Assembly: GCA_028716965.1 (NCBI GenBank)
Contig: JAQUOV010000003.1
Location: 140,756 to 204,755 of the forward strand
Direction of reading: 5' to 3'
DNA length: 64,000 bases
From: Candidatus Omnitrophota bacterium
Lineage (GTDB): Bacteria > Omnitrophota > Gorgyraeia > Gygaellales > Profunditerraquicolaceae
The notes beneath the pieces are model-generated. The model searched no databases and was not told where the DNA came from. It saw only the letters and a program-made list of their open reading frames with translations. Of this stretch, positions 1 to 44,691 are shown in pieces. Position 1 is the first letter of the stretch, and every line of letters starts with the position of its first letter. A program made the translations under genes and the position numbers.

Positions 1-3000
1 TCTTAATTACCCTTCCTTCATTTGCCGCATCATAACTCTCATGGACTGAACTCTTTGCGTTCTTATATTCTAAACTCTCAAAAACTTTCTCCGCGGCCTT
101 ATAATTCAAGTTTTTCATATGTTTCAATGCTTCCGGAACTGATACTAAATCCTTGTTTTCTACAACTTCAAACCTGGTATCGCCATTCTTATCCTGGCTT
201 TCAAAACGGGAAATCTTAAGGAATGCGCCGTTATTATAGGCTATTACAAAACGTATTACATTATGGCTGTCCCTAATGAATATTTCCGTAACAGTGTTGC
301 CGTCCTTAAGCGCTGTGACCTTGCGCGTAGCCAAATCATCCGACCTGTAAGATGTTGTAACCGACCTTTCATTGTTCTTTATAACCTTATTAATACGCTG
401 TATCCGGTAGGAATCTTTATTGCCGCTGGCCTTAAACGTGGCAACCTCTCTTTTTCCGGAATAAGCTGCTACCGGAACCTCCTTGCCTAATGTTTTATCA
501 AACCTGTAAATAGTAGTTTCTTTTGTCTTAGGAGAGAAGGTTTTAACCATATAGCCTTCTACGTCAAAGAATGCCTCAAAACGTTCTCCTGTTATAGCAT
601 TGGCAAAAATCAATACTTTGTAGACTGCTTTACCGGCTCCTTCATTCCCGGTAAGGTTCATAACCGCGTATTTCTCGCTGATTATGGCATTCATGAAATC
701 AATATAAGGATAAGGCGAGCCGTTGCGTAAGTTACTAATACCCCTGGTTAAATTCTTTAAGGCGCGCTGCAGGTTTTCTTCCTGATGGGCAAGGCGCTCG
801 ATCTCCGACTGCTCTTCAGGATTAAATACGAACTTATAAGTATTGTTCTCGGCTTGAGAATAAACTACCCAATCAAATTTATAAGGCGCCTGATAAATAA
901 GCCACAGCAGTTTGGCGTTAAGCTCTGAAGTGTCGGGGTTCTGCAACATGTACTGCCTAAGTTCCTTGACATTCCTGTCTTCATCATACCTTCCTAATAT
1001 TCTTATTGCCTGCTCCCAGGTAACTTTTTCACCGGGTTTTGTAAACCTGTAGAATTTCAAATAACCGTTTATTGCATCCAGGCTGTCTTTTGCGTCTAAC
1101 AATTGGTTCCTAAGCTGCTTAAATTTGGCCAATTGGTTAACGTTAGCGGCAATCTCAAAACCCTTGGCTGTTTCGCCTAACGAATAGAATTTACCTTCTT
1201 CATAGGGTATCTTCAGGAACCCGCCGCGTTTAATTACATCTTTCATAAGCTTAGCATTATTAAATGCCTGGATTAAATTCCTTGCTACCTCAAAAGCCTC
1301 ATCCACGCCGGTCTCAATCACTACATAATGCACATTCCCTTCTTTATCGGTAAATTTAAACTGCCCCTGCTCAATTGCGGCCTTTGCCTTTACCGCAAGC
1401 TTCCAGGCATTATCGCGTTCCTGCCTGCCAAAACCTATCTCTATATGCAGCTTGCCGGTTTTCTTATCAATCCACCAGGCCCTTACTATAGTCTTATCAA
1501 TATTCTGGTAACTCCTGATGCTATGTTCATAATTGATCGCCGAAGCCTCAAGCCCTCTTACGGCAAGATATATACCCGGGATAAACATTCTGTTGCCGTT
1601 TGCGTCTTTATAATAGAATTTCTCTGTGCGGGTAGGATTGCCTGTCCCCAAGAATCCCGTGAAGAACTTAAGCGGGTTCACCACTATTTCATTCCATAGC
1701 CAGTTCAACCCTCCCCAAGGGTCTTTAGCAAGCTTTAAATGTTTCGGCAGGCTCAATCCTTCTGGCATAGCCTCCACATTATAACCTCTGTCCGTGGATA
1801 CTATTTTACCTTTGGCGTCTTGAGGCACCTTTGGCCCGGCAACCGTTGCCTTTGCCCAGTCAGCTATGTCAAATTTCCCTCTGCCATTGCCTTTTCCGGC
1901 TGCCTTAGCGGTAAGCCAATGAGGGAATAGATAACCAAACAGGTCATGAACGGGTTTAGGTATAAAGCTCAAATCAACGTCTGTACCGCCCCAGCCGCTT
2001 AATATTGAATAATACTTAATGGAGTTAAGCAAAATCTGGATATTAATCGGATTAATGCCTTCAGTAAGGAAAGTCCTGATCGCCAGATCCATTACTGCGC
2101 CGCGGGTGGCAGTCTTCTGGTTCTCAAGATTTGCCTCTACATTCTTTTTGGACTTCCTATACAGATATTCGGCGGTTGAAAGTGTATGGGGCCAGACCAG
2201 ATTACCCCTTGTATCCCTGATTTCCAAGACTGGAGCTGCTGGGTCAATAGAGAATCTGTTGTAATTCAACCACTCCGCCTTCTTTTCTATAAGGTTTAAT
2301 ACCCTGAATTTAAAGTTCTTGCTGTCTGCATAAAATTCATCTTCATCTTTATATACGCGTGAGACCTTCCACCTGCTGGTCCTGGTATCAAAAGCCAGGG
2401 CGTAAAATTTATTGGCAATGAAATTACTGTTTATGGCCTCTTCTGATCCGAACCTTACAGCCAAGTTCTCCTCTACAGAGGAGATATTAAGCATAATCTT
2501 TTGTTTGTTAAATTTAACTGCCCTGGCCCTGGCGTAATCAAGTTTCATTACCGTATCATCATCGCCTTTGGTTTCTACTCTTACAGGTACCAGGTATGCG
2601 CTTTCGCCGGCAGTAAGAGGAGCAAGGATCATATATCCTTCCGGAAGCAAAGAGGTCTTCTTGCCTGCGCCCTTAAGAACCTGCCCAATGAAGTGCAGGA
2701 TATTCTTATATTTAACCCAGAAGCTCTCTTTTAATTCTAAGAATCCTGCGCCATAAACAACAAAGGTATCCTGTTTCTCCAGCAGCCTGGAGAGCTTGCC
2801 GTTTATATAATCATTGTAAACTTCCTGGTAATTGGTGTAGACCTTAAGCGCCTCAAATACTCCTCTTTCATTCAGGCGGATAATGCTGGCAATACTGCCT
2901 ACAATTTTCAATTCCATGACAAAAGCCCTGTTCTGGGCAATCTCCATCCCCCAGTCTTTCTGTACTTGTGCGCTCTTTTCTAAAGCAAAAACCTTTAAAC

Positions 3001-6000
3001 AATCTTTTTCCACCTGCTTAACATTGCTGTAGTAAAGCGCCCTTTTCCCTTCAGGAATTATATACTGATCAAAGGTACCAAAGGCCCTGCCTGTAATCTG
3101 GAATTTATTGAGCAACTGCGCAGGTTTTACACTAACATCCACATATACTACCCTGTCTAATGCCTGCAAATGCCTGATATCTATGATTACTTTTCCTTTT
3201 CCATCAACAAAGACTGGCTGCCAATCAATATCACCCTGGAGATGCGGGCCGAATAAATCCTTTAACCTGCCGTTATAATATCCATCGCTGAATAAACCAT
3301 CATATTGCCTCCAGGGCAGCGTCTTTGAAACTACCATTCCGCCGGAGCGCATCGCTTTGTTATAATCGTTAGGATTACGCCTTAATATGCTGAAAAATCC
3401 TTCTCTCTTGCTTTCAGGCACAATTACCGTAAGCTCTTTGCCTTTTACATTAAACCTATGCAACTCAAACCCGCGTGCCTTCAGGAAATCCTCATTAAGC
3501 TGCTCTATCCTGGACAAATATACTTTTGCTGAAGCAGGGTCATATACGAATACGCGGCCTTCAGGAGCAGACAGGTTCCATTTACCGGAAGTAACTAACT
3601 GCTCCAATACTTCATTGGAAACCACTCCTACGTCCGGATACTTGCCTAATCTTAGGTAAACACGCTGGTTATCCTTATCCAATAAAACCCCTAATTCTGG
3701 AAGGCCAACCATCTTGCTTAATCTCTTCCCTTTCTTAACATCACGTTCTATATTCTCTTTATGTTCATGGATTAGAGGTAATTGCTCTCGGGCCTTTTGG
3801 TAGGTTCTACTTAACTGGCCGGCCGATGGCCTTGTTTTCTTAACTGACGATTGGATTTGTTTGATAGGTTTAGCGGCTTTAGTTTTAGGAGGAGCACGGC
3901 TCTGTACAGGTTGGATCTCTTTCTTTGGCGTAACTATCTTTTCAGGCTGCACAGGAGCAGGTTCTGCTTTGCTGGCAACCACCGTTTTCTTTTTTGAAGG
4001 CCCTGCTTTTGGCTCCGGCTGAACAGGATTCTTTCCCTTCTGTTCCACAGGCTCCGCTTTAGCCGGGGCTGGATTATCAGCTTCTTCTTGTGGCTGTGCT
4101 ATCACGCCTAAAGCACCCCATGTTTCTTTACCCACAATACCATCAACCTTCTTAAGCTCTTTTGCTTTCTGGAACAACATTACAACTGCCTTTGTTCTCC
4201 ATCCGAACATTTTGTCAATAAACTTTCCTGTCTTCAGCCTGGTTACGATATCTTCTAAGCGGGCCCCTATTGCCTTATCAGACTCGCCTGGAAACATCTT
4301 CTTAAGAATCTTACTGAGATCCTGTTTCTGTGTATCGGTAAACTCTCCGGAATTAAAGAAAACTCTCAATTCCCCCTGTACATATACAATTTCTTTATTA
4401 GCCATGCCTATTTTTAACAACATATGCGCTGCTGATTCTTTATACCCTATGACTTTAACAGGAAGTGCTGGTTTTGCCTGAGATAGAGGCTTTGTTTTTA
4501 CGGCTTCCGTCGGCTTTACTGCGGGAGCTTCTGGCTTAGTTGTTTCTCCGGGTTTTACCACAGGCGCTTCGGGGGCCGGCTGTACTGCAGGGGCTTTTAC
4601 CGCAGGCGCTTCGGGTTGAGTTGGAGCGGCTGGTTTCTGCAATGCCTTTTCTGCAGCGGCAATTTCTTCCCTGAGCGGCTTGGTTATCTCTGTAATTTGC
4701 TCTAAGCTAAATCCCTTTTGCTGGCCCAATGCTATCAGCTTAGTTAACTTCGTTTTTATCTGGGGTAATGTGTTTGAATCCTTCTTAAGTTCTGCGATAT
4801 ACATACCGGCCTGCTTTAGCAATTCCTGCTTTTCCATTTCTAAAGTAACTGCCGGTTCTCTTGGTTGTACCGCAGACTCAGGCTTTGACGCTTCCGGCTT
4901 TACTGCCTTAGCTTCCTGCCCCAAAGTAACTTCTCCAGTAATAATATTCAACATATTACCACCTGTCTTCTGCAAAGAACCCTCGAACACAGGATAAAAT
5001 GCAAGCATATTTTCTGTATCGACGGCTATCACCAGCCCGATTCCGTTATAATAAGCATCAACGGTACCTGCGGTTGCCCTGAACAATTTAGCTTTTTCTT
5101 TATTTTTAAGAGTTTTCACATAATATGTCTGTTCATCGCCGAATCCCCAATACGATGTGACACAGTCATAATTTTTATCTTTCGCATACGCTAGTAAGAG
5201 GCGGTTTATGGTGGACTGATTAATGGGATGAGCGCCATTTGCTATGATATAACCTTTTGTTTGTTGCAGGTTTTTCTGCCTTGATACCCATGTTTTTTGC
5301 TCAAGGCGCTCTGCCTGCTCCGCGGTAAGGAAAATAGCATCGCCATTTCCTGCGGTATATAATTTATTGCCATTGTCGTAAACAAAAACTAAATTATTAT
5401 AGAAATTATCTAAGCGAATTTTCCCACCGTATTGAATTGTATACGACGTAATTTGCTTTGCATTATATTTAACATCAACGTAAACGTAGCCCTTCCTGCC
5501 TTTCTTAGTATTTTCGGGCATCCCCGTAAAGACTACATTATAAAGTCCATCTTTTACTTCTTTAAACGACTTAACTTCTGAACCTTGCTTTATAATTTGA
5601 CTGATGTTTACTGTGTTGGTATCAAGGTCTATGGTCTTTTCCTGCGCAACGCCAGCTTCTACCTTAGGCGCGACAGGCGCTTCCGGGGCCGGCTGTACTG
5701 CAGGAGCTTTTACCGCAGGCGCTTCGGGTTGAGTTGGAGCGGCTGGTTTCTGCAATGCCTTTTCTGCAGCGGCAATTTCTTCCCTGAGCGGCTTGGTTAT
5801 CTCTGTAATTTGCTCTAAGCTAAATCCCTTTTGCTGGCCCAATCTTATTAATTCGGATAAACGAGTTTTCTTCTCAGTTAATTCGCCTGGATTATTTTTA
5901 AGTTCCTTAGTGTATGCTTCGACTGTTTTTATAAATTCTTGTTTTGTTGTTTCTGCAGTTACTGCCGGTTGCGGCTGAGCTACTTTAGCCGGCTCTTCAC

Positions 6001-9000
6001 TTAATAATCTTTCTATATCCGCTTTGTTATCCGGATAAACAGCCAAACCATGCTTAGCCATTATGTACTGCTTTACCTGTTTTAATAGTTCCGGGTTGAT
6101 GGTTTCATTCTTAGCCTTAAACTGAGCAGTAAGTTTATTAACGGCATCGTTTAATTCCTGCTTGACAATCAGGAGATTGCCTGGTTCGGCAGCATGGGCA
6201 ACCGATGGGCTGAATATCGCTGTTTTTATGGCGGCGTGATTATGTTCGTAGAATGTTGCGGGTTTAACTAAATAGGGCTCAAATAACGAACTGACTTGAA
6301 GGAACAAACCGAAGAATACACTGGCTATCTTAGGAGGAGATTTGTTAAAATGGTTGGTGCTGTGTCCGGGTTTCTCTATTAATTCCATTGAAGATATTTT
6401 TAACATCGCGTTAAGCGAACCGCCTAATTTCACATGCCAAGCCTTAGGCCCGATCTGGAAGGCTATGCGCCTGAATTTACCGGAAGTTGGCACTGTAACT
6501 ACAATATTATCCTTACCCATAACATCGGGTACCACTACTAAATTGGCCCCGGGGAAACTATTCTCATTTGCATTTTCACCGAGGAATTGCACCCCTATCT
6601 TCATATTCTCAGGCCCGGAAAGGTTATATTTAATGCGCAGCTTTTGTCCTTGTACCAAATTAATCGCCGGCTCAAAATCATACCAAACTGCTCTTGCTTG
6701 CCATTGCGGGCCGGTATATTCCCCATATTGGCCTTTTGTAAGGATATTTTCTCCCGTTACGACGCTCTCTTGTTTTGTTATTGGCTGTTTAGGCGTATGG
6801 ACAACAGGAGGCATTACTTCTTGAGGCGCTGGTACCTGAGGCTGAACCTTTGCTGGCTCTGCGTTGATTCCCTTTGTAACAGCTTTGTATAAGTCAGGAT
6901 ACTCTGCCCGCATAGAGTTCTTCATCTGCCACATCCAGCCTTTTGGATCCCAGCACTGCGCCCAGGAATAATTATTAACTATCTCCTTGGCATGCTCTAA
7001 TGCTTTCGCTTTATTACCTATATGGTAATAAGCAACCATCAACTGCCAGTGTGCCGTGCCTAAATGATATAATGCCCAATATTTCCCGAATATAGGAGTA
7101 AGCTCTGCTTCAGTGCTTGCCTGCGGGTACCTGCCTTCTTTAGCCGCTTCTTTCTGCTGTTTTTTGGCAATCTCTACCCAATCAGGATGCTGCTTAAACA
7201 TACCCTCAAGGATTTGTATTACCTCATTCCACTGCCCACCCTGATATCTATACCAGGCCTTGATCACATAATCCTCTGCCTCGGTCATAATCTTCTTGGG
7301 ATCTAATGCCTTTTCTATCTTATCTTTTTCCGTAAGCGGCTTGGCAAGTTGTCCAGCTTCAACTTTAAGCCTATAGGATAGAGGCCCAAAGCCGGCAATC
7401 ATCGGGTCTGCTGACAACTGTGTCATTATCCTATATGATGTGCCGATGCTGCTTAGATTAAATTCGCCATTCTCTGCTTTCCATGGGGTATTCCAGCCAT
7501 ATCCGACTGGCCGGTCATGCCCGTCTCCGCTTCTTGCTTTTATCTGCTTCTTTTCCGCAACAGGTAGACTCTTAAGCACCCCTTCTGATAATGCCTCTTG
7601 CAAACCTTTAACTCTATTTTGGCCTATGGCATAAGGATAAGCAAGGCCGCCTTGAGTCTTAATTTGCGCTTTATCAATCTCTTTCAATATATTGCCATGC
7701 TCGTTCTTATAATAAAGCGACTTTTCCAGGTCCATCTCCTGGAAGCTATCTACAAACAAGCGTAAAGCGGCATTGGCAACCTCATTAGACCATTCAGGGC
7801 TTCCTAACGGCTCCCGGCCTTTCCCTATAGTTGCTTTCTTATCCGGTTTAGTATGTACATAGTTTGTTAACTGCTTGCGGTCAGAATGAGTAACATAATC
7901 AAATAATGTCACACTTACGTTTCCGCCTTCCGGATGGCTGAATTCAATATCCACCTTGTAATTATCAACAATAAACTGGTAAGTTTTATCTGCAGCTCCC
8001 GGCTCAAAAGCATCCATCTTTTTCTTGCCGAATACCGAAATTCCCCAGGCATTTGCATCTAACGGATACCACGGGACTATTCCGGCTTCAACCGAGACCC
8101 CTCTGTCACCGTCAACAAAAGCAACCTCTGTCGTGCCCCATCTTAAAGCATGCGCTGATTTATCGTATACCTTTCCAAGCCATCCGAACACGAGCTCGGC
8201 AGCTAACCTGTACTTTTCTTCTTTAGTTACCTGGTAAAGCATATTGAATAAAGCGTAACTGTCTACGTTATGCTCGGCGCAATACAGTTCATAAAAACTT
8301 GGGGCTTTGGGATCAAAGCCTGCTCTTTGCTCAACAGGATTTCTCCCCTTTGGCCCCATACGCACGCCGCCATAATTAAAATCGCCCTTGTTCTTGTTCT
8401 GTAAAGAAATAATCCAATCTGCCCTTCCTTTAGCAAACTCCAGGAAATGCTCTTTACCGGTGTTTAAATATGCCTGAATTCCGGTTATGCCCCAGAAAGC
8501 GTTAGGGCCGACATGCACTACCCACTCAATGCCTTTGCCTGCCCCCCTTGCATCAGAGGCATCCACAATATTAATGATTCCACCGTATTTCCAGATACCT
8601 GTATGGCTGGTAAAATATTTAAAAGACCTGTTAACCAGCTCAAACTTCTTCAGCAGAATATTTGCCATGGTCTTCATCGCATCGTCATATACGACATCCC
8701 AACCTTTGAGCCGCGGGTCTCCGACATGGCTGTCAACCAGGCTTGTTTCCGTACGGGTATGCGCGTCTAACCACTGGCTGAGTTCCTTTATCGTCTTTTC
8801 ATCGGGTGCCGGCAATTCTTTCCTCAGAAAATCTCTCTGGTTATCAAGCAGGTCTTTTGCGTCAGCAGTAGAGATAGAAAAAAGATTGCTTATGCCGCGG
8901 GCGATACTATCTACAAAATTTGGCGTCTGTTTTAAAGAAATATCCTTAACGGTTGGATTATTCCTGTTTTTCATTAGGCGAAAAACAGAAATTACCTTTT

Positions 9001-12000
9001 TCACATAGTTGTCGGATTTTCTATTAGAGTAACTTATTGCTGCTTCTCTCCCCAGGCGCTTAGCGCGGTTAGGCCCGATATTATAGGCAGCAACCGCATA
9101 TTCAACATCATTGTCAAATCTTTTTAACATCTCTTTTAAATATTTCACTCCGCCTCTAATATTCTGAGCCGGATCCATACTATTTTTAACACCCATATCA
9201 TTGGCAGTGCCGGGCATAAGCTGTGTAAGACCTTCGGCGCCTTTTGGTGAAACTGCTTTCGGCTCGAAGTTTGACTCGCAGCGTATAACCGCCTGCACCA
9301 ATGGCAAAGGCACATTATGACACTTAGCCTCCCTTGCCATAATCTTATAGAATTTTCCTTTATGGAAATACTTAGGTTTACTGGGTATAATTTCATTTGT
9401 ATTATTTAATCCGATGGAAGGCGAAATCTTCTTTGTAGCTATAACTTTTTGGGTAGGACTTATTTTATCTAAAGCCTTTTGCGTCTCCTTCATCCAATGC
9501 CCCTTTATCATAAAACGTGCGCCTTCGGGCAAATTAGTATCTTTTAAAGCCTCATTAAATTTACCAAGGGCTTCCTGGAACATGTTTTTCCTAAAAGAAA
9601 CTACCCCGGCATTATAATGATCCTTACCTATAAAGCCTTTTGTTTGTGCTTTTGTCTCTGCGCCAGAGGCATGTTTTACAAAAGAAAGGCTATTACTGAT
9701 AAAATCAGCAACTTTTCCGGCTATATTGTTAATCTGTTTTACAAATGAAGGCGGGCCCTTGTTATGTTCAGGCGCTAATGCCAGTTGTTTGGCCATAGTA
9801 GATTGCTGGATTCCAATACCGCCTGTTAACCCGGGGTCAGAATAAGCATATTGCTGAGGAAAATCCCCTATAACTATCTGGTTACCGCCAAATCCATAGA
9901 TGCCGGCGCTATCTGCCGAGAAAGGAATTCCTGCGCCATGTGCCGGTGTAATAAACATTAAAACTCCTGCTATCGCAACCAACCCTAAGGCCGCAAACCC
10001 TAAATTAAGCATTCTCACATTAGGTAAGGGCAATGGCGGAACCATCTGGTCAAGTTTTCTTGACGCCCCCTGGTATGCTTGCATAGCCTCAACATACATA
10101 GCGTGTTCCTGTACATAGCTATCATAAATAGCCTCTCCGCGGTTATAGCGTTCTTTAATATCAAGCACTTTCTTGCCTGATATAATGAGTTTTATATAGG
10201 CCAAGGCCTTATCTTGAACTTCATTTGAATCCTTACCCAATGCTTCGATATCCAAAGTTAAGTTCTCAAGCAGTTCTTCTGCATCTACTTGTTTACCTTG
10301 TAATTCATTGTTCGCAATCCGGGCATAATAATCAACAACTATGTCTGCCAACATCCTCTGTTTTTCTTGTTCAACTGGGGATTTCTTGTTATTGGCTAAA
10401 TACGCCTTTAACCACTTGTAGTAAGTTTCAAATATATTATAGCCCATCCATTCCTCTGAAGAGATAGGCTCTAACTCTTCAATCTTATTTTCTAATTGAC
10501 TAACCCTTTGCCTTAAATAGGATATTTTGCGTTTTAATAAAGATAGCTCTTTAGTTAAAACTTGCATGAGCTCCTCTTTACTCTGGCAACCGTCTACCTC
10601 CATGCTTAACTCTCCTGCCTTTACTTCTCCGCAAACCCAATCTCGTAGATATCCAAACTTCTCCTCCTCTAAAGACTTGTTCACAATATCTAAAATACTC
10701 TTTAAAGACCTTGCTTCTTTATACAGAGAAACAATCCTCTCTTTTATTCTGGCAATCCTTGCCCTTAAAACAGACTCTTGGGCTAAATAGTTCTCTATCT
10801 TCTCCACTAACCCCTTAAAATTACGCTTAAAAGCCGACAACTCTCTCCTACCTTCTTTATTTATAACTAATTTTACAGGTTTTTGTATCCTGGCTTCCTT
10901 GAATTCTTTATTTGACTTAATCAAAAGGCGATTCAAGGTTATATGAGCGACGATATATAATCCGATAACTGCAGGTATAAGGCCAAACAGAATAATACTG
11001 CCTGTGATCGTTGCAATAATCGCTATTCTCTTTACCGTATCCATGGTTGAAGAATAAGTATTCACCATCGCTCCGGTATCAAGCGGGCTGGAGCAGCCTG
11101 CCAAATGATTTTTATCCTGCAACCTTGGCTCTGAAGATTCACCCTGCTGCACAGAATTCTCTATACGGTTATCAGCATGCGGATTGATTTTGTGCGCTCG
11201 CCCCATCACAATCAAGCCTGCCATCATATTAATAAACATTGTTACAAATGGTATGCCTAATACGGCTCCTGCCAACCCCACACAAAATACAATCATTGAG
11301 AATATCACCTTGGCTTCCTTGGATCCGGCATCAGCTACTTTACTTGCCATAGCGCCTAGAACAAAAGCCACCAATCCTACGAATACATGCGAAAGAGGCA
11401 CGCCCAGAATTATTGTCACAGCAATCGCTAATACGAAAGTATTCACCACCGCGCCGGTATCAATGGCGCTGGAAACAGAAGAGCCACGATTATTTATTGC
11501 TGGATTGCTTTTAGACAATAACAAATTGATGATCGGGGCCATATTTACGGCAAGCTTCATCGCCATCGGGTCCTGCCCACATACTACAGATAATAAATAC
11601 ACTATCGGTATTAAACTCTTGCCTCCCTGGGTAAACCAACCAAGCCCGGTAGGCACTCTCTCTGCAGGGCTGCCATCAGGATAATAGGCATAAGCCATGC
11701 TATTGTCATACTGGTTCCTATAGCTAAGCAGCTTCTCCAATAGATTATCGGCCTGCGTTTTATATAAAGGATTCTTCCTTGCTAAAGCATATTTTGCTGC
11801 TACCATATGCGTAAAGAATTCCGTAGAGATAAACTCCTTACGGTCGGCTAAGAAGTCATACCCGATGATCTCATCGCTCGCATTCCTTAAAGCAATCCTT
11901 GCATCGGCCATTTGTATAATCTCTTCAGCGGCATTCTCCTCAAACCTGTCCATTCCTTTAACTCCAAATGCCGAGATTGCCCATGCCTGCACATCAGTGG

Positions 12001-15000
12001 GTATACTTGTATCTATACCGTAACCTTCAACATAACCGGAGTAGAAAGCGTGTTGGTTATTATCATAAAGCTTCTTTAAGAATGCTTCGATTTTGTTCGC
12101 GGATTCAAGATATTTAGCATCCCTGGTCAGAGCATGCAGCCAGCTAAATAATAGGTAAGCGTCAATATTGTGTTCAGCGCAATAAATCTGCCAATATCCT
12201 AATGCATTTTCATCCCAATTGATCCTCTGATCTTTGGGATTGCCTGGTTCTCCATGCGGCCCCATTGGGACTGCGCCATAGGCAAAATGGTTTGTATCAT
12301 TATTCTGTAAAGAAATGGCCCAATCAGCTTTTTGGCGAGCTAAGGCTAAATTCTGCTGATCTCTTCTCTTGCTATAAAGCCGTAAAGCCGCAATACCCAA
12401 ATGCAGATTCGGGCCTGTATGCACAAACCATTCTACGCCGCTGGCATCCAAAGCTCTTGCTGCATTAATCTGTCCCCCTAGCCTGGATGGGATTTTTGCT
12501 GATGAGTCAAGGAGGTTTTGAGCGCCTATTGCATCCCCTGCTGCCAACAAGCCCTGCACGGCAATCCCCTGGTCATAAGTTATTGCCCACCCGTCAACAA
12601 CCGGATCCCCCAGGCTGCTGGCTATCAAACCTGTGGGGTATATCTGGCTTTTTGCCCAATTAAACAGCTTTTGTTTTGCATCCTCTTTGTTCAAGCTGGC
12701 AAATACCTTGGCTACTTTTGAATTGCTCAAAGCTAAAGCCATGCCGCCAAAGAATACCCTTCTTAAAAATTCCCTTCTATCTATAGGCGAAGAGGTGCGT
12801 GTATTGGAGATACCGGAGGAGCCACGATGAGAAACCTCTAAATATAAACGGTAAAGTTTAGGAGTGGCTAAAATAATTCCTGCCACCTTAAATTCCACTA
12901 TACGATAAACACGTTCTTTCTCTATACGCTCAGCATATCCTTTTGTTCCAAAGTGGCCCACTAAACCCTGGATCTTATTTTCAGCAGCCGCAGTTATACG
13001 TTCCTCGCTGACTCCAGGCTTAATCCCCAACAATTCAAACAAGTCTGTCTTAAGAAATTTCTTGAAATCTTTAAGTTTGATCTTTTGGAAAGCAGGAAGC
13101 TTACTGTTTATTCCGCGCCAAAGTAAATCAATTTTCTCGCCAGAGGTAAGAGTCTTTTGTTTAGCCTCTACACAAATAGTATTTATAAGTTCTTGGACCT
13201 TCTGGTTATCAATACGTTCTGCCCCACGCCCAACATAAGCCGGCCCTAAGTTTAAATCCTCAATAAAGTCTATTACTTCTAACTTATCAATATCAGTAAT
13301 TCTTTGTAATTCCTTGGTCAAATCAGTAACAAAATCATCATAATTCTTATATTCTCTAGCGATCACCTCAAAATATTCCGCTATAATGGAATATATATTC
13401 ATGACTTCCCATTTGGACCTTGAGCTAATGGGGCTGCTGGAGGAAACCACCGGCTCCTGCCATAATTCAAAGTCAAAACCGTAAAAAGCTTCTATGAGCA
13501 GCTTATTGTCTTCGCGCATCACGGTAAGGATATCTTTTTGCTTGCCGCTGATATACTTTCTTACCTGCCAGACATCTTCTCCTCCCTGATAAACACCCTC
13601 TCCGCTAACCTCAAAAGGATTACCCGAAATTAACATTACTTCATTGTTTTCTTTATCTCCCTTTATCACGAACCTGAACTGTCCATCAGGCAATTCCACA
13701 TCTACGATGTTCCCGCCTTGAATATATTTAATAAATTCTAAACCTGCATCAGGAACAGATAGGCCATAATCGCCTAAACGAATTTCATTTCTACGGACCG
13801 CCCAGTCACCAACCTGCTTGTTTTTCCAGTCCTGAAGATGCGTTTTACGCTCTTCGCTGCGCGCGCCGCTCCAGGCCAAAAGTACCTTCGTGCCGTTTAC
13901 ATCCTTATAAAATCTGTATATTATTATACGGTTACCCGGAATAACAACCTGCCTAAACGTGGACAGCTTCTTATCGCTATAATCTGAACCGGCTGTTTCA
14001 GGAGCGTCAACAATATTCTGAACGGCTCTCTTTAAATTATTATCTCTTCTTAAATCATTAACCGGGAATTGAGGAAGGGCATATACAGTCAAGTTGTTCA
14101 CAGGGCTTGAGCTTGTCTCTAATACCACAACCGCTCCAATTGGAGAACCTGCCCTTCTAACATCCAAACTATTTTTCTCTAAGATTAATAAAGAATTGCC
14201 GTTAACAGTATTCGTTTCTATATTGAAGCCGAGTTTCGCGATTGATTTTGGCTCCCTTTGACTTAAGCAATTCTCCGGCCAGAATATTTTGCTGACTAAG
14301 ACTCCACCATCCTTAAGAGCCCCATTGCTCATCTGTCTTAGCGCCCCCAGCAAAGTCGCCTTTTCATCTATTTCAGTAAATACACTCTTTCCTGTAGCAG
14401 TAATGTGCCCTAATTCAAATGCGCCGATAGAAATAATGGCGTCAAACCTTACGGGGTAAACCTTGAGGAAATCAAGCATATCGGCTTTAAATATAGGATA
14501 ACCGTCTTCGGCTAAGCGGGAATCTACGCCATAAACTATTGCCCCCAGTTTACGCAATGCATCCATCGAATCTGTTTTTACCCCAGGGCCTATTTCAAGT
14601 ATCCAGGCGCCTTCAAACTTCTTGCCTTGTTTTTCAAATATCCTTTTTAGCGCCTCTACTATAGGGTTGGCACAAGCAGCTTCCACTGTACCGCTATCAA
14701 GAGGACTACCGGAAGATGGTTTTTCTAACAGTTTTAGTAAAGCCCTACATTCATCCTTGAGTTTCTTGGAAGTATCCTCATTGCTAATTAACGCCTGAAG
14801 GTCAGGCACTATTTCTTCTAATGTTGTTTTGAATCTTAGGTATTTAGGTGAATTTTTACGTTGATGATCCTCAAGCTTTTTTCTGAGTTTCTGTAAAAGG
14901 TTAGATTTGTTTCCCACAAGAAAAGAGCTAAATAGTATATCGTGAAGCATTTTATCTTGAAACGTATACCCCATCTCGATAAATTCAACTATCGTTTTAA

Positions 15001-27000: not shown

Positions 27001-30000
27001 CTTCTGCGTCTTCTTGAGGATTTATTATTTCATTTATAGTAGTGAGCAAACCGTGGTAATCGTAGACGATTGTTTCAAAATCAATGTTGCCGGTAAATTG
27101 CTCTATAATGTTTCTTAAGCCGAGCGAATGGTGTTCTGCGGTGGTTACTGAATTAGGTAGGTATTTCAATACAGCATTAACAAGATGCTGCCTTGCCTCA
27201 GGCGCGCCCCTTGAGCCATTAGGAATGTTTCTTAAATATTCTATTTTACCTAATATTTCCTGTCTGGTTTTCAAAGGCAATCTTGCAGCTTGTCCCCCCT
27301 GCGCATTGCCGGCTGTATTGGCTATGGCGTGCTCTATCAATTGAAGTAAGGGCATATGGACATTAGCGCTAGAGTTCTTAATTTCTTCGGTATAGATATT
27401 ACGCAGAAAATCCAGCCTCTTGGCTACCTGCGCTACTCCCATCAGACTAACTGCATGTTGTAATGACCAGCCATAATTGGCGTCTATGGCATCATAGCTG
27501 GCATCAGCCTTTACCTTAGCTGCTTCTCCCAGAATATGCTGAGCATATCCTTTAAGAAAAGAGGACATCTGTGGGTCATCGATTATCTCTCTCATTGTGG
27601 TTTCTATCTTGGAGGCTGACTGCCTTAAAGCTTCTTTTACCCTTACCTCGGGTGACTGTCCGATATCAGCCAACTCCAGATGATAATTTTCTTTATATTC
27701 TATGGCTTTCTTAAGCAAGTCCTCTATCTTTGCGACTTGCTCTGAGGTCTTGGCCTGTTGAAGCATATTTTTTAACTGCTCTATCAGCCCGCGGGAAATA
27801 GCCGCTTCCCCAATCTGGAACACTAAGGCATCGGAGATATCCAAGCCGTCTTTCATGAGCGCACTGCGCTCCAATTCTCGGGCGTTGGCATTAGTCAGCT
27901 TAAATGCTTCCATACGCTGATTCAATTCAGTCTTTGTAAGGCCAAAGACATTCTGTTCCGTCAACTTGCTCTTATCATACAATACTATTCTTTCACCTTC
28001 AGTCACGCCGCTTCTTCTGTTCCTGTTTATCGCCTGCACCAGGTCGGAATGTCCCCAATTATGCGCATCATATACGATAACGTCAAATTCGCCTTTATAA
28101 TCAATGCCGGTTGCCGCCCTTTCGTTAGAGATAACTATCCAGTCTTTATTCTGGCCGATGCAATTTTGAATCTTATCATTAATTTCGCCGGCTGAGGTGC
28201 TTTCATTAATAGGGATAATTTCTTTGCCTTTGAGTCGAGGCTCATCCGTTATCCTAGCTTTTAAAGCATTCATGGCTTCGCGGTCTTTTATGAAAATCAG
28301 CGTTGCCCGGTCCTTTATTAAGGTAGGCATGATCTCAGCATAAGCTGTTTCGCCGGACTTAGGCTCAACTCTCGCCGTCTCTAATCCTTTTGTATCTCCG
28401 GCATTAACAAAGCCTTTGCCTAAGTTAAAAAGAAGCATTGTCTCAACCGCATTCAAGGTACCTGAAGCGCCTAAGACATCCGCACCCTCTTTAAATCTTA
28501 AGACTTCCGATAAAGTAGCCTGGGAAGAAGAAGCAGAAGTCTTCAAATTACTCCTAATTGCCTCCATATCCAGGCCTGAATAGCCTAATTTCTTTTGTAC
28601 TTCAGGATCCGATAGCCTGGTAAAAGCCGCAGCCAGGAAATACCTGTCGCTGAATATCTTGCTTACTTCGGCATTGCCTTTTTCCCGCGGGACAATTTGA
28701 TCTTTTATATCTTTTTCGCCTGCAACTGTCCACCTGTTTGTGTTCCTTGCCTCAAAGAACCCGCCGATTTCATGCGTACTTAATCCTTCCTGCTTTAAAA
28801 GATCTATTGCTGCGCGCGTCAACCCCCATTTCCCATCACTATCCTGATAAAATAAAGATTTTGTTTCGTGATTGTCTCTGGCATATTCTAATGCATCTTT
28901 TGCGCTTGTTTTATCATCCTTTTCCCACGCCTCAGATGCTGGTTCTAATTCACCCTTATTCATAAGCTCCGTAATCTTTTTGTAAGCCTTTTCAGCGCCT
29001 ATGATAAACTCGGTCTGCAATTTAATTGGATTTCCTGCGGAAAGTATATAGGTTATTTTATCAGAGAAGGGAATATGGAACTCGTCAAACCTGACGAAGT
29101 CCTGGTTGATAATCCTGTCTATCAATGTCGACTCCTGGTTCCTGTTGCGCAGATGCCCAAACTGCTCCATGCTGAATACCGTAATCGTATTGCCTTCACC
29201 TAACTTGTTCTCTAACCCACCATTGTTTGCGTTAGATAGGGATAGGTCATCACCGTTTGCCAGTTCCACCCCGAACATTTTTAAGAATTCCACCATATTA
29301 GCGCTGCCTTTATTGCCATTTACAGTAGACTCCAATTCTACTCCATCTTTTACAACTAAAGTCTGATTAGGTATGTTACCCATCTTCCTTCCATACAAAT
29401 AATTAACCAACATTTCCACCAGGTAGGCATCGCTCTTGCCGCCTCCGGCAGTAAGATGAACGTTAAATCCTTCCTTTAAACCGAGGATCATCTTTAGCTG
29501 ACCGGTTACTGTTTCTTCTTTATACGCTTTAGATGGATCTTTCGCCGCCTTTTCTATATTGTATTTAGCAAAAGCAATATAAGTAGCAAATACCAAAGGC
29601 ATGATTTCTTCTTTTGTTATCTTTACGCTATTTTTATCTTCGCCTTTAGCAATGAACCGGCCGATGAATTCTTCCAACCTGGAAACATCGGCATTCTTTC
29701 CTAATAAATTCTCCTGTTTTAACTGCTTAAGATAAGCATTCAAGTTATCAACGAAATCATTAATTTCCTTTTGCTTCTCCTTAGCTATCGGTTTAGTTAA
29801 TTTGCTTTCATTGAATTCTGCCATTACATCCCCGCTATCTTTGCCAACTTTCATACTTAATACACCTGATTCAAAGTAACCCCTATATCCCTCACCCTCA
29901 CCTTTGATCATACGCTCAGCATAGCGGCTTCCAATCTGAGGAGAGAGACGCGCCAGTACAGGGATCAAAAGATCAACCTTCTCCCCCTTAATGTTTAATG

Positions 30001-33000
30001 TGATCACCCTGTTTTCTTTCTTTCCCCCTATAACTTTCTCAATTTCTGCTCTTCTATCATTTACAAATGTGGCGAGGTCATCGAATTTCTCCCCTGATTG
30101 CCTAAGCTCATTCTTAAAGTCTTGCAACTTTCCTTCCATTGCTTCAATTTGTTCCTTAATCAGCTTTTTCCTGCTGCTGTCAATTTCTTTAGATAGATTT
30201 TCATTTAACAATTTTATATCCTTAAATAAACCATTAATCCTGTTTAATTTGGCGGATTCACCAGCTACTTTCAGAAGAGAATGTTCCTCTAAAGCCGCCT
30301 CTAATTTTTTTACGGATAATTTCTCCAATTTCTCCAGGTGGCTTGCCGACAGCATATCCAGAATGTCCTCTACACGCTCTATAGGCTTGGAGGCGCCGTT
30401 TCTTTCTACGTAATCTAACAGATGCCGATCTTTAAATGATTCTAACGCATCTTTCTCTCCCTCAGAAAGCTCCACGCCAAACCGCCGGTTATAAGCTTCA
30501 ATAAGCTCATCGGTTTTCCCTTCTCTTATCCCTTGTAAAGCGGCTTTCTTCAGGAAATCTTTTTCTTCTTTTCTTAACTCACCAAGTTTTTCATAAGGCT
30601 TCCCTTCAAGATAGGCCTTTTGCCAAGCCTCGTTTGCCTTCCAATAATCCTTGTTATAATCTTTTACGCCTTCACGGCTGGCATTCTCCCTGGCTGTCTT
30701 TATTCCCTCAACCAACAGCATCAAGTGCTCGACTCTTTGATCGCGTAATTTTTCATTGGGTATTACGCCTTTTAAATTATCTTGGAACTGCCCTTTGATT
30801 GTCTTCAGGTGCTCTTGTTTCTGTTCAGTAGTAGCGGTAACCGAAACATCAAGATTTACTCCATTCAGCAGCCTTCCCTCTGAACGCTCTTTATCAGCAA
30901 CTATTCTTGATGCTTCAGTAAGAAACCTGCTGTTAACAGGCAGTTCTAATTTTACCGTTTCCTTGCCAAAGGCAAATTCGATCTGACGACTCTTCCCCAT
31001 AACATCCTCTAATGACTTATCGCTGTCTTTCATTAATCCTTCGGCTGAGCTACCGGACATAAGCAGTCTCTGAAGCTCAATACCTCTTTCTACGCCCTCC
31101 CTTACCCTGCTTAAGTCATTATATGTTTCTTTAGACAAGACTTGAAAATCACCTAAGGTATCCTTACCAAGGATTTCCCGCGCATTGTCTGTAGCAGGAT
31201 TAAAATCCGGCTTGAGTTCCTGGGCCGCTATTCCTAATGCCTGATCAATGACTTTCCCTACTTCCGCGATGTTAGCCTGGCTGTTTTCTGATTTACCATA
31301 AATTCCTTCTGCTTCGGAAATTTTATCCAAGAACTTCTGCGCGGCATCGAATCTTTCCAGATAAGTCTGCTTTAACATGGAAGTAGTGCTTTCAGGGCGA
31401 ACACCTTCCGAGGCGATTTTCGCGTGCTCTGCGCTAAAACCAAAAACATTCTGCAATACATTTTCTGTCAGGCCCCTATTGGTCTGTTCAAAAGAGGTAT
31501 AAATATAGCCCTGTTTTACCGCTTCCGCAAAACTGCCGGCTTCCCTAGTTGCGTTCATCCAACTATGGAAATTGTCTTTTTCCTTGCACAACTGCGCTCC
31601 CAGCCGCTCACCTAAGGAAGCCTCGTAAGTCGGCACCATAAAGAAAGGAAGCCAGTTGGCGTAAGATTTGACGCCTTCTGATATATAACCTGCGCGCTGA
31701 TAATTGACAATTTCTCCGTGATCATTATAAACCGGATTAGTCTTTGATTCAAAACCAACCCAATCACCGACTTTTTTATCTACAATATCAACCACAGCGC
31801 TAACGCCGGTCACAAACCCGGGCATCCAGAGTACCGAAGAATCCACCCAGCGCCCGGCCGCCATCAGGGTATTCGACAGGTTTATCTGTCCCAGCCTGAT
31901 ACCGTCGGCAAATTCAACTCTATCTTTCGCAAAAACTGACCTTACGATATTAACAGCCCTTTCCACTAAGCCTCCGGAGGTATAAATAGGGCTGGTAGCC
32001 CAGGACTCAAGCGAAGGCTTGGCCTGGAACAGCTCGATCATCGGCTTCATCCACATACCTGACTTCGGGCCTTCTATTGCCGAAAACGCAAGATCACCGG
32101 CTATCATGGTCTTAAAATTAATGTTCCCATTCTCAGCATACCCTGTTTTCATCAGCCAGGTACCAGGATTAAAAACTGAGAAATTATTGATCATGCCCTG
32201 CATTGCAGGAGAAACCTCTCCATTATAAAGACCAAAATACTTTGCTTTTACGCCTTCCCAAAAAGCTCCGCCAAACGTAAATGCCGGCGATACTACTGTC
32301 CACTCAGCCGCTCCTGCCAAGGCGCGGTAAAATAACAGGTTAGGGCCGCTGAAAGTCCCCAATTCCAATCCGAATAAGGTTCTCACGGGTTGCGCCGCTG
32401 TTGCTTCTGTGGCTACCCCTGAGTATCCTTTTAAAACATTGCCTATCTGGCTACCCTGCATACCTAAATATATTCCAGTTGCTCCACCCATAAGACCATA
32501 ACCTAAGGTGTCAGAGAAAACTCTCTTACCCCAATTATCGCTCATCGCATAATTAAATGCCTTTGGATCTCTAATTCCAGCCAAATAATAATTAACGCCA
32601 TCCTGCGCAATATTTACGCCTGTTCCTGCAAAGACGCCAGTAATTCCGCCATATACAAATCTGCCAAGCATTGCTGAATCGCCATAACGCGTCAATATTC
32701 CCCTACCTACTCCTTGAGCAAAATTAGGTATGAGAGCACCTTTTGGCGTAAGATTGCCGACAGGCGTGCTAAAACCCCATCCCAAAGCAGCACCAATGAT
32801 TCCACCTCGCACATAATTCCAGGGATTAGAATATGCGTCAGCAACGCTTTTCCCGCCCAGAAGCACTGCTGCCAGCGGAAAAGCCGACATCCCTGCGCCT
32901 GTATAGGTGGCCATAGAACGGCCTAGTCCCTGCATTCCAAATCCTGTTAGCCCGCCGCCTAAAATTGATAATCCATATGAAGACAGTTTTGCCGCATCCA

Positions 33001-36000
33001 AAGAACCATCTTGTCTGAATAAAAGATTCTGTCCGGAGATGATATTTGAGCCAACGTTCATACCTAAATTAAATCCTGACACAATGCCTGCTCTTACCAA
33101 GGAAGATTGTGTCAAAAGGCCTGCGCTGCCAAAAAGCGCGCCTGCCGCTGCACCGGCACCAAAACCTTGGCCATATAGTTTGGCCACGCTCAAATAGCTC
33201 ATATCAGAGCCTTGTCCTTGGAACGCCGCCGCAGTAGTTCCGCTCAAAGCGTATATCTGACCACCGGCAAGCGCTTGAGAAGTAATACTCGTCAAGAGCC
33301 CACTCCCAAGTAGGGTTTCTCCGGCTGCCACTTTGCTGGCAATGGGAATACTTGCTCCCGCGACAACCAAAGCGGCATTCACATCCCAAGGCAACACCCC
33401 TGCCCAAATTGATTCCAAGCTTAAACCGTTATTATAAACAGATGCCCCAATACTGACTGCGTTGGGGATACCCACCGTGGCTATCTCATTAAATACAAAT
33501 GAACCGGCTGCTCTTTTGGCAGCTTCGCCTACTGTCCCCCGGGTAATACCTCCCGCGACTCCGAGCGTACCAACCGTAATAACAAGCTGAGCGCCGGCAA
33601 GCCCCAACTCTAAATTTGCATTTTGAATCTTATTTTCCAGCTTTTCTTGGTCCGGGAGCGTAATCCCGCGTATCTCTGCATCATATAGCTTAAGCTGATC
33701 GTCCACAATCGTTCTGGCAAGATTAGAATGCGGGTCATCTTGAATAGACATTGTAATAGGATTAAAATATTTATTGTTACCTAAATCAACAGGGTCCCTG
33801 CCAGATATTTGCGCGAAACTATCAACGAAATACCTAAAACTCTCCACTCCCCATTCCTTATTGTCAGCAGTAATAGCCACAATAGATTCACCGCCGTTAT
33901 AAACTGCTCTAGCAAAACCAACCACCGTGTTAACTAAAGACGCCGGTATACCAAAAGATATAGGCCTATCTTCTGCAAGTTTCTGAGTTAAAAGCACTCG
34001 TGTAAAGTTTAAAGCTGGATCGCCGCCTATATCATCTTCTGACGAAAGTCTAAAGTCGTAAAAAACATCTTTCATCTCTGCGATAACATCCTGATTATAA
34101 CCCATTGCTGTCAATCCATTCTCCAATAAAGGAGCCCAATCATGTTTAATTTTTGAACCTTCAAAATACAAATTATTTTGTAACATTTCACCCGTACCAT
34201 AAAGATTAGAAATCTCTGTACCTTTTTCAGTTAATAACTTTATCTCCGGAGACTGTAAATATCTGTTATCAAGGCGGCCATATTCATCTATTGGTACACC
34301 AGCAAAATTTATGCCGGTAATATTAGCGCCCGAGAGCCGCGCAAAAGTCATCCCCTTATCTACAATTGTCTTATCTGTTGAATCTCTCTCTCCAACCTCC
34401 ACTGGGTCAGTCCAAATCTTTCCTCTTAATACAACCCTAGCCTCAGCCGTATCTGCTCCTGGCATCAAAGTAAATCTAAACTTCAAGGCGCCTTCTGTGC
34501 CTTTAGAATCTGCGGGAAGTTGCGAATTTATCAACCACATGCCTGTTTCAGTATCCTGTCCGATTGCTTTGTAATAACTTTGAGGCCCATCCATCCCGGC
34601 ATTCTGCGCCACCTGATCAGGATTAAGCCTTAGACCGCTATCAGATGGTTTTGCAAATCGCACAGGCAAAGGAGTAGAATCATTTTTCATGACATAAGGA
34701 TCCTTTAAATCGTGCCATTTGCCATCTGAAGTAACTGAATATTCTCCTTTTTCTAAGGTATCCATGATTTTCATATTAAAACCATCCACAGGATGCTTGT
34801 AATATGCTGTAATGTCTTTGGTTGCGATGAAATCGCTGTTTTCTTTGGTAGCGCGTATCTGTAAACCCTGATTATTTTCCTGGTTGATGAGCTCTGTACC
34901 CCCGCTTATCAAAATACGATCATGCAAAGGAGTAGAAGTATAAGAGCCGTCTTCAGAGATATACCTAGTATAAGCACTGGTAGTATTGAGTTGCAGAGGC
35001 TGCTCTTTACCTCCGGCGATAATGGAACCAAACATAAGCTGGCCGTTTGCCTGAGGAGTCATTCTCCAAGTATTGAGGCCTCCGGTAACTGCGGCTGCGG
35101 TTGCTAAATCCTGGCCTACACGATTACCAAAAATATCATAACAGGCGGGCTTACCTTCTTTAGGGGTAGTATAAATTACACTCTGTGCATTCTCGGGGGT
35201 ATTGGTTACTTTATCTACCCTTGCGAACGCTACGTTTGGATCTTCCCAATTTCCAGTTTTTGCAAACGTTACCGGAGTTATTCCTAATTCCGCTGTTAAG
35301 TTGGTCCCTTCATAATTTATCGGACCACTTAAGCCAAGCGAATGAAAATGTTTCTGTTCGAAATTGAACGTAGATAATCCTTCGGGATCAGAAAATACTA
35401 CGCCTTCGAGTTTATTGGACTCATAGTATTCTGCAACTTCTACTTCCCTGCCAAGGACTGTTTTATCAGAAAAATCAATATTAATCTTACCGGAGTCTGA
35501 TTGCGCTCCGGCTATTCCCCCATCTACGCCAGGAACCGCATTAAACGAGTCCAGATAACGCGGGCTAAAAACTTTTACTTCATCCTTTTCGTTAAGAAAA
35601 ACTGAATGGCCAGCTATTTGGGATACGACGCTGTTACCATCTATAGTTTCTATGGAATAAGACTGCTTTAAGGAAGGATAGAGATTTAACCCTAATTTGA
35701 TATCTTTTGTGCCCTCATCACCTTTCTCTAAAGAACTTACATGCGCGATAACCTCAGAGCCTGGCTCAATAGACATATCAGTAAGCAAATTCCCATACCA
35801 GCTTGTTCCATTAACTAAATTGTCAACCACTAAGTCTTTTCCCAGCGCCTGCTCTAACTTCCCCCTTGCCCATGTAGAGACATACTCTAAAGTGGAAACA
35901 TCTCGAAGAGACCCTAGGCTTGACCATAATGAACCTTCTCTATCAGTCTGCCAAGTTACATAATTATTGTCTCCGATATCTACTGTTTTAGTATCGCTTC

Positions 36001-40798: not shown

Positions 40799-41081
40799 TA
40801 CCTAATGGTATAGAAAACAAAAAAAGTCTTCCCCTTACCCCAGCAGATACTTTCATAATCTTGGCTTTATTTAAGGACATTGTTTTTATTTATTAAAAAG
40901 TTTCTAAAACTTCTTAATAAGATATTAAATAAAAATCCGAGTTGTCAAATATCCTTATTTCCCTTCGACATTCGGCAGCCCGGCTATCCTTTACTTCTGC
41001 TTTTTTAATTTTGGATCCGTGGCTTTGCGCCCCCCGATTACTCGGAGTTTACCTTTTCGTTACTTAACTCTTTACGTTCAA

Positions 41082-41110
41082 AGTATATATATATTTATTA
41101 TACTTGTCAA
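41082..41110 (-). promoter_or_regulatory. Candidate sigma70-like promoter for the giant gene (TTGACA, 17 nt, TATACT)
   Basis: Minus-strand -35 at 41110..41105 and -10 at 41087..41082; this implies a leader of about 275 nt. Confidence 0.3.
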
Positions 41111-44682: not shown

Positions 44683-44691
44683 TTAACCTCC

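Follow-up and report, generated by a model that had tools for sequence, protein, structure and literature searches.

Giant genes of the phylum Omnitrophota have been described as a set of genes of > 90 kb, with products of > 30 thousand amino acids (kaa) (West-Roberts et al. 2023, bioRxiv 10.1101/2023.11.21.568195); a protein of ~39,000 amino acids (aa) in Velamenicoccus archaeovorus LiM serves as their type example (Kizina et al. 2022, cited in West-Roberts et al. 2023). A later catalogue lists 5,761 Omnitrophota proteins of at least 10 kaa and, among 916 long Omnitrophota proteins, an architecture cluster of 24 that carry PF03412, the C39 peptidase family (Nielsen & Lui 2026, bioRxiv 10.64898/2026.06.07.730766). 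The giants are preceded by a secretion locus of more than ten genes, including gspD/E/F-like genes, rcpC, a Rotamase_2 peptidyl-prolyl isomerase (PPIase) and small genes with class-III signals (West-Roberts et al. 2023), a neighbourhood reported again by Nielsen & Lui (2026). Small PilZ and solute-binding or glycoside-hydrolase genes follow them, GGDEF domains occur inside some, and most, not all, contain a divergent SecA_DEAD or SecA preprotein-binding domain (West-Roberts et al. 2023). Here we analyse a 64,000-nucleotide (nt) stretch of contig JAQUOV010000003.1 (assembly GCA_028716965.1; hereafter the window), the minus strand of which carries the 5' part of such a giant gene at positions 2–40798, behind a leader with a predicted riboswitch for cyclic di-GMP (c-di-GMP); a locus resembling those for Tad (type IVc) pili ends with this gene.

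The giant open reading frame (ORF) is uninterrupted, as the original prediction had claimed from the letters of the sequence. A TAG directly precedes the open frame at 40801 on the minus strand, and from plus-strand coordinate 40801 down to position 2, minus-strand frame 0 runs for 13,600 codons without a stop; ~888 stops are expected from base composition (p = 0.065 per codon; probability of none ~ e^-918) and the remaining five frames over the same DNA contain 446–1,289 each, so this frame is open far beyond chance. It is still open at position 2, which agrees with the earlier statement that the 3' end falls outside the window, and its length (at least 13,599 codons) places it within the range of the Nielsen & Lui (2026) catalogue (at least 10 kaa). 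The start named in the original prediction, ATG 40798, does exist and gives 13,599 codons to the window edge, but it is replaced by ACG or AAG in the close relatives L005 and L007. A second ATG, at 40792 on the same strand (13,597 codons), is kept in the six closest relatives (L002, L005–L008 and L015; not in the more distant L030 and L031) and has the better spacing from an AGG Shine-Dalgarno sequence. Because it is both conserved and better spaced, ATG 40792 is probably the start codon, rather than 40798.

The coding signature is uniform over the entire giant ORF. Codon-position G+C is ~0.50, ~0.38 and ~0.41 at the first, second and third positions, with GC1 > GC3 > GC2 in most tiles; RNY periodicity is highest in frame 0 in all 1,000-codon tiles but two, which are ties; and relative synonymous codon usage correlates with that of the neighbouring genes at r = 0.89 overall and at 0.73–0.89 per 2,000-codon tile. 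Overall G+C is ~0.43 (0.41–0.47 per 2-kb tile), higher than the ~38% first given for this DNA. With considerable confidence we regard the window as holding the first 40.8 kb of one real Omnitrophota giant gene with a C39 head, which closes a Tad-pilus/secretin locus and to which the surface-machine, c-di-GMP-switch and recombining-body roles proposed below would belong.

Comparison with the giants of West-Roberts et al. (2023) shows the very long single ORF and largely unannotated N-terminal region to be shared, together with a C39 peptidase (C39 or S8 in theirs) near the N-terminus beside a signal-like segment; many membrane segments, a helicase-type ATPase and cell-wall-active domains; and upstream gspD/E/F-like genes, rcpC, a Rotamase_2 PPIase and small genes with class-III signals. 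Unlike most of those giants, the window gene gave no SecA_DEAD or SecA preprotein-binding match. It also differs from the Archaeovorin subtype, having no glycosyltransferase, methyltransferase, glycosyl hydrolase, SAM-dependent methylase, NUDIX or GGDEF domain in its 13.6 kaa, although such domains could lie further downstream of the window edge; and from the dockerin-type subtype, since Pfam tiles found no dockerin or TSP3 repeats over the same length. Total length and downstream PilZ genes apart, for which the sequence beyond the window edge would be needed, it carries the defining features of the Omnitrophota giant-gene family for which we tested, except SecA_DEAD. The closest class, compared by description, is the C39-signature cluster of Nielsen & Lui (2026): likened in this way, the two share few Pfam domains with a C39 signature, membrane anchoring, sequence uniqueness, and Tad or type II secretion genes plus transposases in the flanks (IS200 here). 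The giant ORF is thus another truncated example of an already described gene class. The earlier assignment to an Omnitrophota-type giant gene is borne out by named head homologues that come nearly all from Omnitrophota metagenome-assembled genomes (MAGs) and by a C39 head combined with a secretin/GspE/GspF/RcpC/Rotamase_2 locus. The rarity then ascribed to such genes was overstated: the 5,761 catalogued proteins that reach 10 kaa make a gene of this kind an expected one within the phylum.

Riboswitches of the c-di-GMP-I (GEMM-I) class are known to precede genes for pili, adhesins, motility and virulence in bacteria such as Vibrio cholerae and Clostridioides difficile. In the window a c-di-GMP-I-clan aptamer, the only one present, lies at 40970–41062 on the minus strand with its 3' end ~170 nt ahead of the giant-gene start codon; of the Rfam models, RF03167 (c-di-GMP-I-GGC) fits it best, scoring 62.7 bits where the gathering score is 59 (E 2e-12). 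A sigma-70-like promoter, TTGACA-17-TATACT, which is a candidate by consensus match only (11 of 12 positions; 41082–41110, minus strand), is found ~20 nt upstream of the aptamer. Among 20 related loci 19 passed the Rfam gathering thresholds, 14 as RF03167 and five as RF01051. A custom covariance model built from these then showed that, of the 79 loci with enough upstream sequence, 70 have an aptamer no more than 600 nt ahead of the head (median distance 157 nt; for example 9723–9819 in L002 and 1479–1572 in L031), and three further loci have one 1.2–3.5 kb upstream of the head. Across the alignment 97.8% of cells are paired and 159 are double-change cells (39.8 in shuffles), figures to be read with the alignment having been fitted to the covariance model, which favours pairing somewhat; sliding the pairing partners lowers pairing to 26–50%, and in the tetraloop helix double changes occur at each of the six pairs.

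These RNAs resemble the c-di-GMP-I riboswitches of clan CL00126 (RF01051, RF03167) in the two-helix aptamer with a GNRA tetraloop, in the position in a 5' leader with a terminator-like platform, in passing the gathering score and in covariation. They differ in that the target gene exceeds 40 kb, that a consensus G is replaced by A, and that ligand and direction are predictions. The replacement is seen in all 19 seed aptamers, which have CAAAGCC where the RF03167 consensus has CGAAgCc; this is probably the position that defines the GGC variant, so that these RNAs may be canonical c-di-GMP binders. Sequence and covariation indicate that the giant gene is preceded by a c-di-GMP-I-clan riboswitch, with c-di-GMP binding predicted.

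A terminator-like expression platform occupies 40927–40981 on the minus strand, where GGGCUGCCGA (40981–40972) can pair with UUGACAACUC (40948–40939), followed by AUUUUUAUUU (40936–40927). RNAalifold on 36 leaders pairs the aptamer 3' strand GGGYUGCCGA with UUGACARYYC; this partner and the UUUUUAUUU that comes after it are both conserved. The hairpin has nine pairs, two of them with double changes, and a conserved U-run. The minimum free energy fold of the single leader gives the same hairpin, and a simple terminator scan did not call the site. If the hairpin is a terminator, ligand binding would prevent its formation, and we infer an ON switch in which the ligand-stabilised aptamer blocks the terminator hairpin. 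The leader also contains an invariant GGGGTAAGGGG element at 40845–40855 (minus strand), ~45 nt before the start codon, which every one of the nine aligned leaders contains, even those that are distant; its distance from the ATG is too great for a Shine-Dalgarno sequence.

Second aptamer copies were observed several kb upstream, inside Tad-like loci, in five relatives (L024, 1441–1562; L016, 1441–1577; L032, 870–968; L075, 5783–5940; and L050, 2545–2641), which suggests that the pilus genes of those relatives may also be under c-di-GMP riboswitch control. The word riboswitch is absent from both giant-gene papers (West-Roberts et al. 2023; Nielsen & Lui 2026), and literature searches combining riboswitch with Omnitrophota or Omnitrophica, or Velamenicoccus with c-di-GMP, returned nothing relevant; the leader riboswitch of the giant genes is probably an unreported regulatory feature.

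The aptamer stands in front of a head that, like the 5' leader and the upstream Tad locus, is conserved across the phylum. A homologue search with the first 900 aa returned 56 proteins, of which almost every one is annotated as 'partial' and, where named, as Candidatus Omnitrophota or Omnitrophica; they align over aa ~1–290 only, mostly at 50–65% identity and at 80–88% in the closest. A genome scan with the head alignment, taking one genome per species, confirmed at least 110 relatives, of which 80 were fetched; their heads are 50–90% identical and the species genomes mostly carry Omnitrophota labels. The closest loci (79–90% head identity, ~79% nt synteny) are labelled Candidatus Omnitrophota. 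The 64-kb window contains no marker genes, and the host genome is assigned to the phylum indirectly, from the labels of the closest loci and of the head matches. Of 82 related loci, 77 have a head ORF that is still open where the fetched DNA ends, after as many as ~3,680 codons. It stops early (214–2,766 codons) in the other five (L008, L038, L051, L081 and L083), for which a short form of the family, a pseudogene or a frameshift from assembly are possible readings.

Behind the head the relatives part company. The closest relatives, P0001/L004 and L002, have heads 88% and 80% identical to that of the window gene, and similarity to them ends abruptly at a Tyr/Asp/Asn-rich low-complexity linker (aa ~300–345; 39764–39901, minus strand), and DNA similarity to them stops at position 39764 although their ORFs run 500–1,000 codons further. 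L005 is an independent assembly with an equally similar head and a frame of its own that stays open over 3,674 codons; it runs collinear with the window at aa 2–1481 (62–72%) and 3056–4447 (56%), with an unrelated, shorter segment opposite window aa 1482–3055. A Gly-rich hydrophobic module (aa 2396–3118; 31445–33613, minus strand) recurs out of register in at least eight relatives, matching 2815–3247 in L010, 3158–3614 in L052, 842–1319 in L047 and 432–934 in P0035; it has no Pfam match, and a PDB profile search gave chance-level matches only. A quarter of inter-locus matches are out of register by > 500 aa. Beyond aa ~4,760 the window gene has essentially no match in the ~3,300-aa relative bodies available. 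From these comparisons the body is a mosaic of mostly orphan modules, not a repetitive one, and near-identical heads carry unrelated bodies; the sequence-unique tail agrees with the 80% of long-protein clusters that are singletons (Nielsen & Lui 2026). Polymorphic surface and toxin proteins such as Rhs and CdiA are alike in their conserved head and locus, unrelated distal sequence and abrupt loss of similarity at a linker, but no Rhs/YD, FHA or toxin-immunity features were found here, and the analogy is one of evolutionary pattern only.

A wider proposal builds on three observations, namely the conservation of the aptamer, the hairpin that competes with it and the lack of relation between bodies whose heads are near-identical. 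In this proposal a phylum-wide c-di-GMP ON riboswitch would gate the C39-head giants and their bodies would be exchanged between lineages by recombination, implying an arms race with hosts; we judge this proposal to be evenly balanced between right and wrong.

The conserved head (aa 1–290; 39929–40798, minus strand) begins with a hydrophobic segment, VVAFIVIAVFLPEQVAQA (aa ~33–52; 40643–40702, minus strand), which is preceded by K/R residues, is modelled by AlphaFold2 (AF2) as a helix over residues 29–52 and is predicted to be a signal peptide or signal anchor. P46, A50 and A52 of the adjoining PEQVAQA segment are invariant in a 20-sequence head alignment; the invariant A50 and A52 (AxA) fit a signal-peptidase site. 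A class-III (Flp-type) signal at the N-terminus, suggested by an AVEY motif, was rejected as the hydrophobic stretch precedes this motif instead of following it. A Peptidase_C39 match (PF03412; aa 182–266; E 3e-9) lies above the family cut-off, and the motifs KPC135GSKAL, DH227YVLV and FAD243E are present. Cys135 and His227 are both invariant in the 20 head sequences, and among 57 head sequences His227 remains invariant and Cys135 is at least 90% conserved. An AF2 model built from the 57-sequence alignment, with core predicted local distance difference test (pLDDT) values mostly of 85–96, was matched by Foldseek to the peptidase domains of LahT150, PCAT1 and ComA (probability 1.00; template modelling (TM) scores of 0.70–0.76 normalised to the target; PDB entries 6mpz, 7n87, 5xe9 and 3k8u). 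Sequence and model agree that the head contains a cysteine-peptidase domain of the C39 (double-glycine) type in which Cys and His are conserved, its activity being predicted. It shares the C39 fold and these two residues with the peptidase-containing ABC transporters (PCATs) PCAT1, ComA and LahT. It differs from them in having no attached ABC transporter, and the hydrophobic segment in front of it predicts a periplasmic, not a cytoplasmic, location.

A peptidase at the head of every family member, of the type that cleaves double-glycine leaders and with Cys and His conserved, invites the reading that the giant is a polyprotein, a single chain cut by the C39 head or by other proteases into many working proteins, as also raised by West-Roberts et al. 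(2023); the gene would then be giant, but its functional product would not. Lack of a functional relation among the modules, and their shuffling between relatives, are as expected of separable units. However, no cleavage sites were identified in the chain, and in PCAT transporters the C39 domain cuts cargo and not itself. We hold this reading to be possible but doubtful; it is in any case compatible with a single C39-head giant gene rather than opposed to it.

Pfam domains, scanned in two offset sets of 1,000-aa tiles across the 13.6 kaa, were few; they cover ~6% of residues, leaving ~94% of the body Pfam-dark, and three enzyme-like domains were seen (C39, a superfamily 2 (SF2) ATPase and SLT). 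The earlier description of an 'extreme mosaic of enzymatic, membrane and repeat modules' therefore stands as to the mosaic but was overstated as to its content, repeats also being few. Self-BLAST of the giant revealed TPRs, one duplication of ~300 aa (36%) and one of ~110 aa (72%) only, and DNA repeats are limited to a 233-nt pair (88% identity), a 71-nt pair and one perfect 21-nt tandem; a mainly repetitive protein was rejected on self-BLAST and TRF results.

The ATPase module (aa ~3730–4363; 27710–29611, minus strand) is a divergent, SF2 helicase/translocase-like one, with a Helicase_C match at aa 4162–4264 (E 6e-6) and SF2 motifs I, II, III, V and VI (TAGGGKS, DEFH, GASGTL, ATGIDY and QAINRNRR) that are invariant across L005, L048 and P0057. 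SecA_DEAD (PF07517) gave no match at E <= 0.05 in the tiles, nor at E <= 1 in this module and three orthologues. A phmmer search of the module against the PDB found nothing, and a four-sequence profile gave a marginal DEAD-box match only (DBP2, E 0.016). Downstream follow a first TPR block (aa ~5359–5460; 24419–24724), a stretch with weak coiled-coil matches (aa ~6550–6680; 20759–21151) and a second TPR block (aa ~7486–7794; 17417–18343), all on the minus strand, both TPR blocks being Pfam matches. The 21-nt tandem lies within the coiled-coil stretch (20793–20910; 5.6 copies, 100% identical) and encodes GEVGELK heptads, its perfect identity suggesting a recent in-frame expansion or contraction.

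A membrane scan by Kyte-Doolittle hydropathy (19-residue windows, >= 1.6), a crude predictor, gave ~12 strong peaks in the giant protein in addition to the N-terminal segment. Strong candidates are at aa 7343–7361, at aa 7977 and in a cluster at aa 8116–8403; ~7 candidate transmembrane helices cluster at aa 7977–8403 (15590–16870, minus strand) and four strong ones at aa 9796, 9831, 9935 and 10266 (hydropathy 2.4–2.6; 9947–11413, minus strand), in agreement with DeepTMHMM results published for the class (Nielsen & Lui 2026). The wall-active domains are located after the last membrane segments. An SLT family lytic transglycosylase domain (PF01464; aa 10490–10605; 8984–9331, minus strand) has a Pfam match at aa 10490–10585 (E 4e-26) and intact motifs CE10509S (catalytic Glu-Ser), GLTQLMP and AYNIG, and a PG_binding_1 peptidoglycan-binding domain is found at aa 12194–12230 (E 7e-8; 4109–4219, minus strand). 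The last 1,200 aa in the window (aa 12400–13599; 2–3601, minus strand) are an orphan tail with the coding signature, for which an exhaustive reading of 1.84 billion representatives produced no match at E <= 1e-3; a word-indexed search with the last 1,500 aa (12100–13599) produced none at E <= 1e-5.

Upstream of the giant gene and on the same strand, the Tad-like locus (41446–59529) contains the component set CpaB/RcpC, secretin, TadZ, TadA ATPase, TadB, TadC, Flp pilins and TadE/G pseudopilins. Pfam matches define a PPIase with Rotamase_2 (58603–59529), RcpC/CpaB (57727–58599), a secretin fused to a C-terminal TonB_C domain (56111–57718; E 2e-18), a TadZ-TadA fusion of a ParA/MinD-like ATPase with T2SSE in one 720-aa protein (53939–56101), DUF192 (53598–53942) and two T2SSF proteins (48231–50009). 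Within 46077–50936 are ~7 small ORFs for Flp-like pilins, in which a hydrophobic helix comes after the motif AQSTxEY, as in class-III/Flp-type signals; a TadE/G-like gene at 44692–46074 and three conserved ORFs without assigned function at 41446–44682 complete the minus-strand locus. A fusion of a Tad secretin with TonB_C is unusual; TonB C-terminal content has been noted in two giant-gene flanks (Nielsen & Lui 2026). No Peptidase_A24 (TadV) was found among most minus-strand ORFs of at least 100 aa at 41446–59529, an overlapping ORF at 50389–50733 being unscanned, and the prepilin peptidase may be encoded elsewhere in the genome. L002 and L003 share the gene order of the locus, the DNA of L002 being ~79% identical across it. 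An IS200-type Y1 transposase gene lies on the plus strand (52920–53540) between the TadZ-TadA/DUF192 genes and the pilins, adjoined by a minus-strand ORF of 547 aa without a Pfam match (51231–52874). Beyond the locus are a tRNA-Glu (CTC) gene (60104–60178, minus strand) and divergent plus-strand genes (60287–63930) that encode a FIST-domain protein, a histidine kinase and a response regulator whose GGDEF domain has the motif GGDDF, a group that is a possible local source of the c-di-GMP signal.

The mechanism that we propose runs as follows. c-di-GMP would stabilise the aptamer, the competing terminator would not form and transcription would continue into the 40-kb-plus gene. The N-terminal segment would target the chain to the cytoplasmic membrane, into and across which it would be threaded, the ATPase assisting its export or remodelling and the C39 head cutting the giant itself or a partner protein. 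Together with the Tad-like pilus, the product would form a cell-surface attachment and peptidoglycan-cutting apparatus, its wall cutting aimed at a host or prey cell or at the cell's own wall for passage of the apparatus. Recombination at or beyond the low-complexity linker would diversify the body. A role in attachment, or towards host or prey, has been proposed for the class (Nielsen & Lui 2026).

The target of the wall-active domains might also be purely internal, with SLT and PG_binding_1 opening the cell's own peptidoglycan for the Tad pilus or the giant protein, in self-assembly and not attack. Dedicated lytic transglycosylases (SLT) are well known in type II, III and IV secretion and pilus systems, and the giant gene sits at the end of a Tad locus. 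Peptidoglycan synthesis is intact in these genomes (Nielsen & Lui 2026). Against this, a task for 100 aa leaves more than 13,000 further residues unexplained, and the hypervariability of the body suggests interaction with changing partners; we consider self-assembly as the sole purpose unlikely. An assembly artefact, in which shorter genes or strains were joined by misassembly or stops and frameshifts were erased by sequencing errors, is very improbable: although an exact 50-mer from the window start was absent from genome_contigs and metagenome_contigs, the neighbouring ORF was found elsewhere only in a 2.5-kb Logan contig (SRR22315507), giant genes often break assemblies (hence the 'partial' homologues) and aa ~4,760–13,599 are almost without relatives for a collinearity check, 13,600 stop-free codons from unrelated genes would require every join to be in frame, neither the codon-position signature nor codon usage varies much over the length of the ORF and both match those of its neighbours, no long direct or inverted repeats favouring a misjoin were found in it, an independent MAG is collinear over ~2,900 aa, and complete-genome long-read studies show such genes to be real in the phylum (Nielsen & Lui 2026).

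Several points weigh against our interpretation of a c-di-GMP-switched surface machine encoded by one giant gene. The best Rfam model for the aptamer is the GGC variant, for which c-di-GMP is a presumed ligand, and the ON direction comes from predicted folds in which UUGACA could instead be a -35 box. SecA_DEAD, contained in most giants according to the 2023 paper, was undetected here, and two aligned sequences gave an AF2 model of the ATPase module that was too poor to use (pLDDT 43.8). Taken alone, the strong membrane segments would put the ATPase and the SLT domain on the same side, which is implausible because the ATPase is an ATP-using domain. A frameshift or chimeric join is conceivable over the ~9,000 codons without a collinear relative, and the 3' end of the gene, hence its full length and any downstream PilZ genes, lies beyond the window edge.

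The giant ORF alone changes little, given that its class already has thousands of listed members. The conserved 93-nt aptamer, which is easily synthesised, offers a handle on the regulation of giant genes and bears on when and why uncultivated episymbionts and predators express so costly a gene; by way of the riboswitch, the published and unexplained association of giants with PilZ and GGDEF could be tied to a concrete c-di-GMP circuit. Two points merit follow-up: a riboswitch that recurs throughout the phylum, and a conserved head that ends sharply and is joined to exchangeable bodies. Riboswitch and head may also serve as search handles for giant genes in fragmented assemblies and for studying their diversification. 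If our proposal is correct, the cell would make a transcript longer than 40 kb, and from it a surface machine of several megadaltons, only on a second-messenger signal, such as contact with a surface or host.

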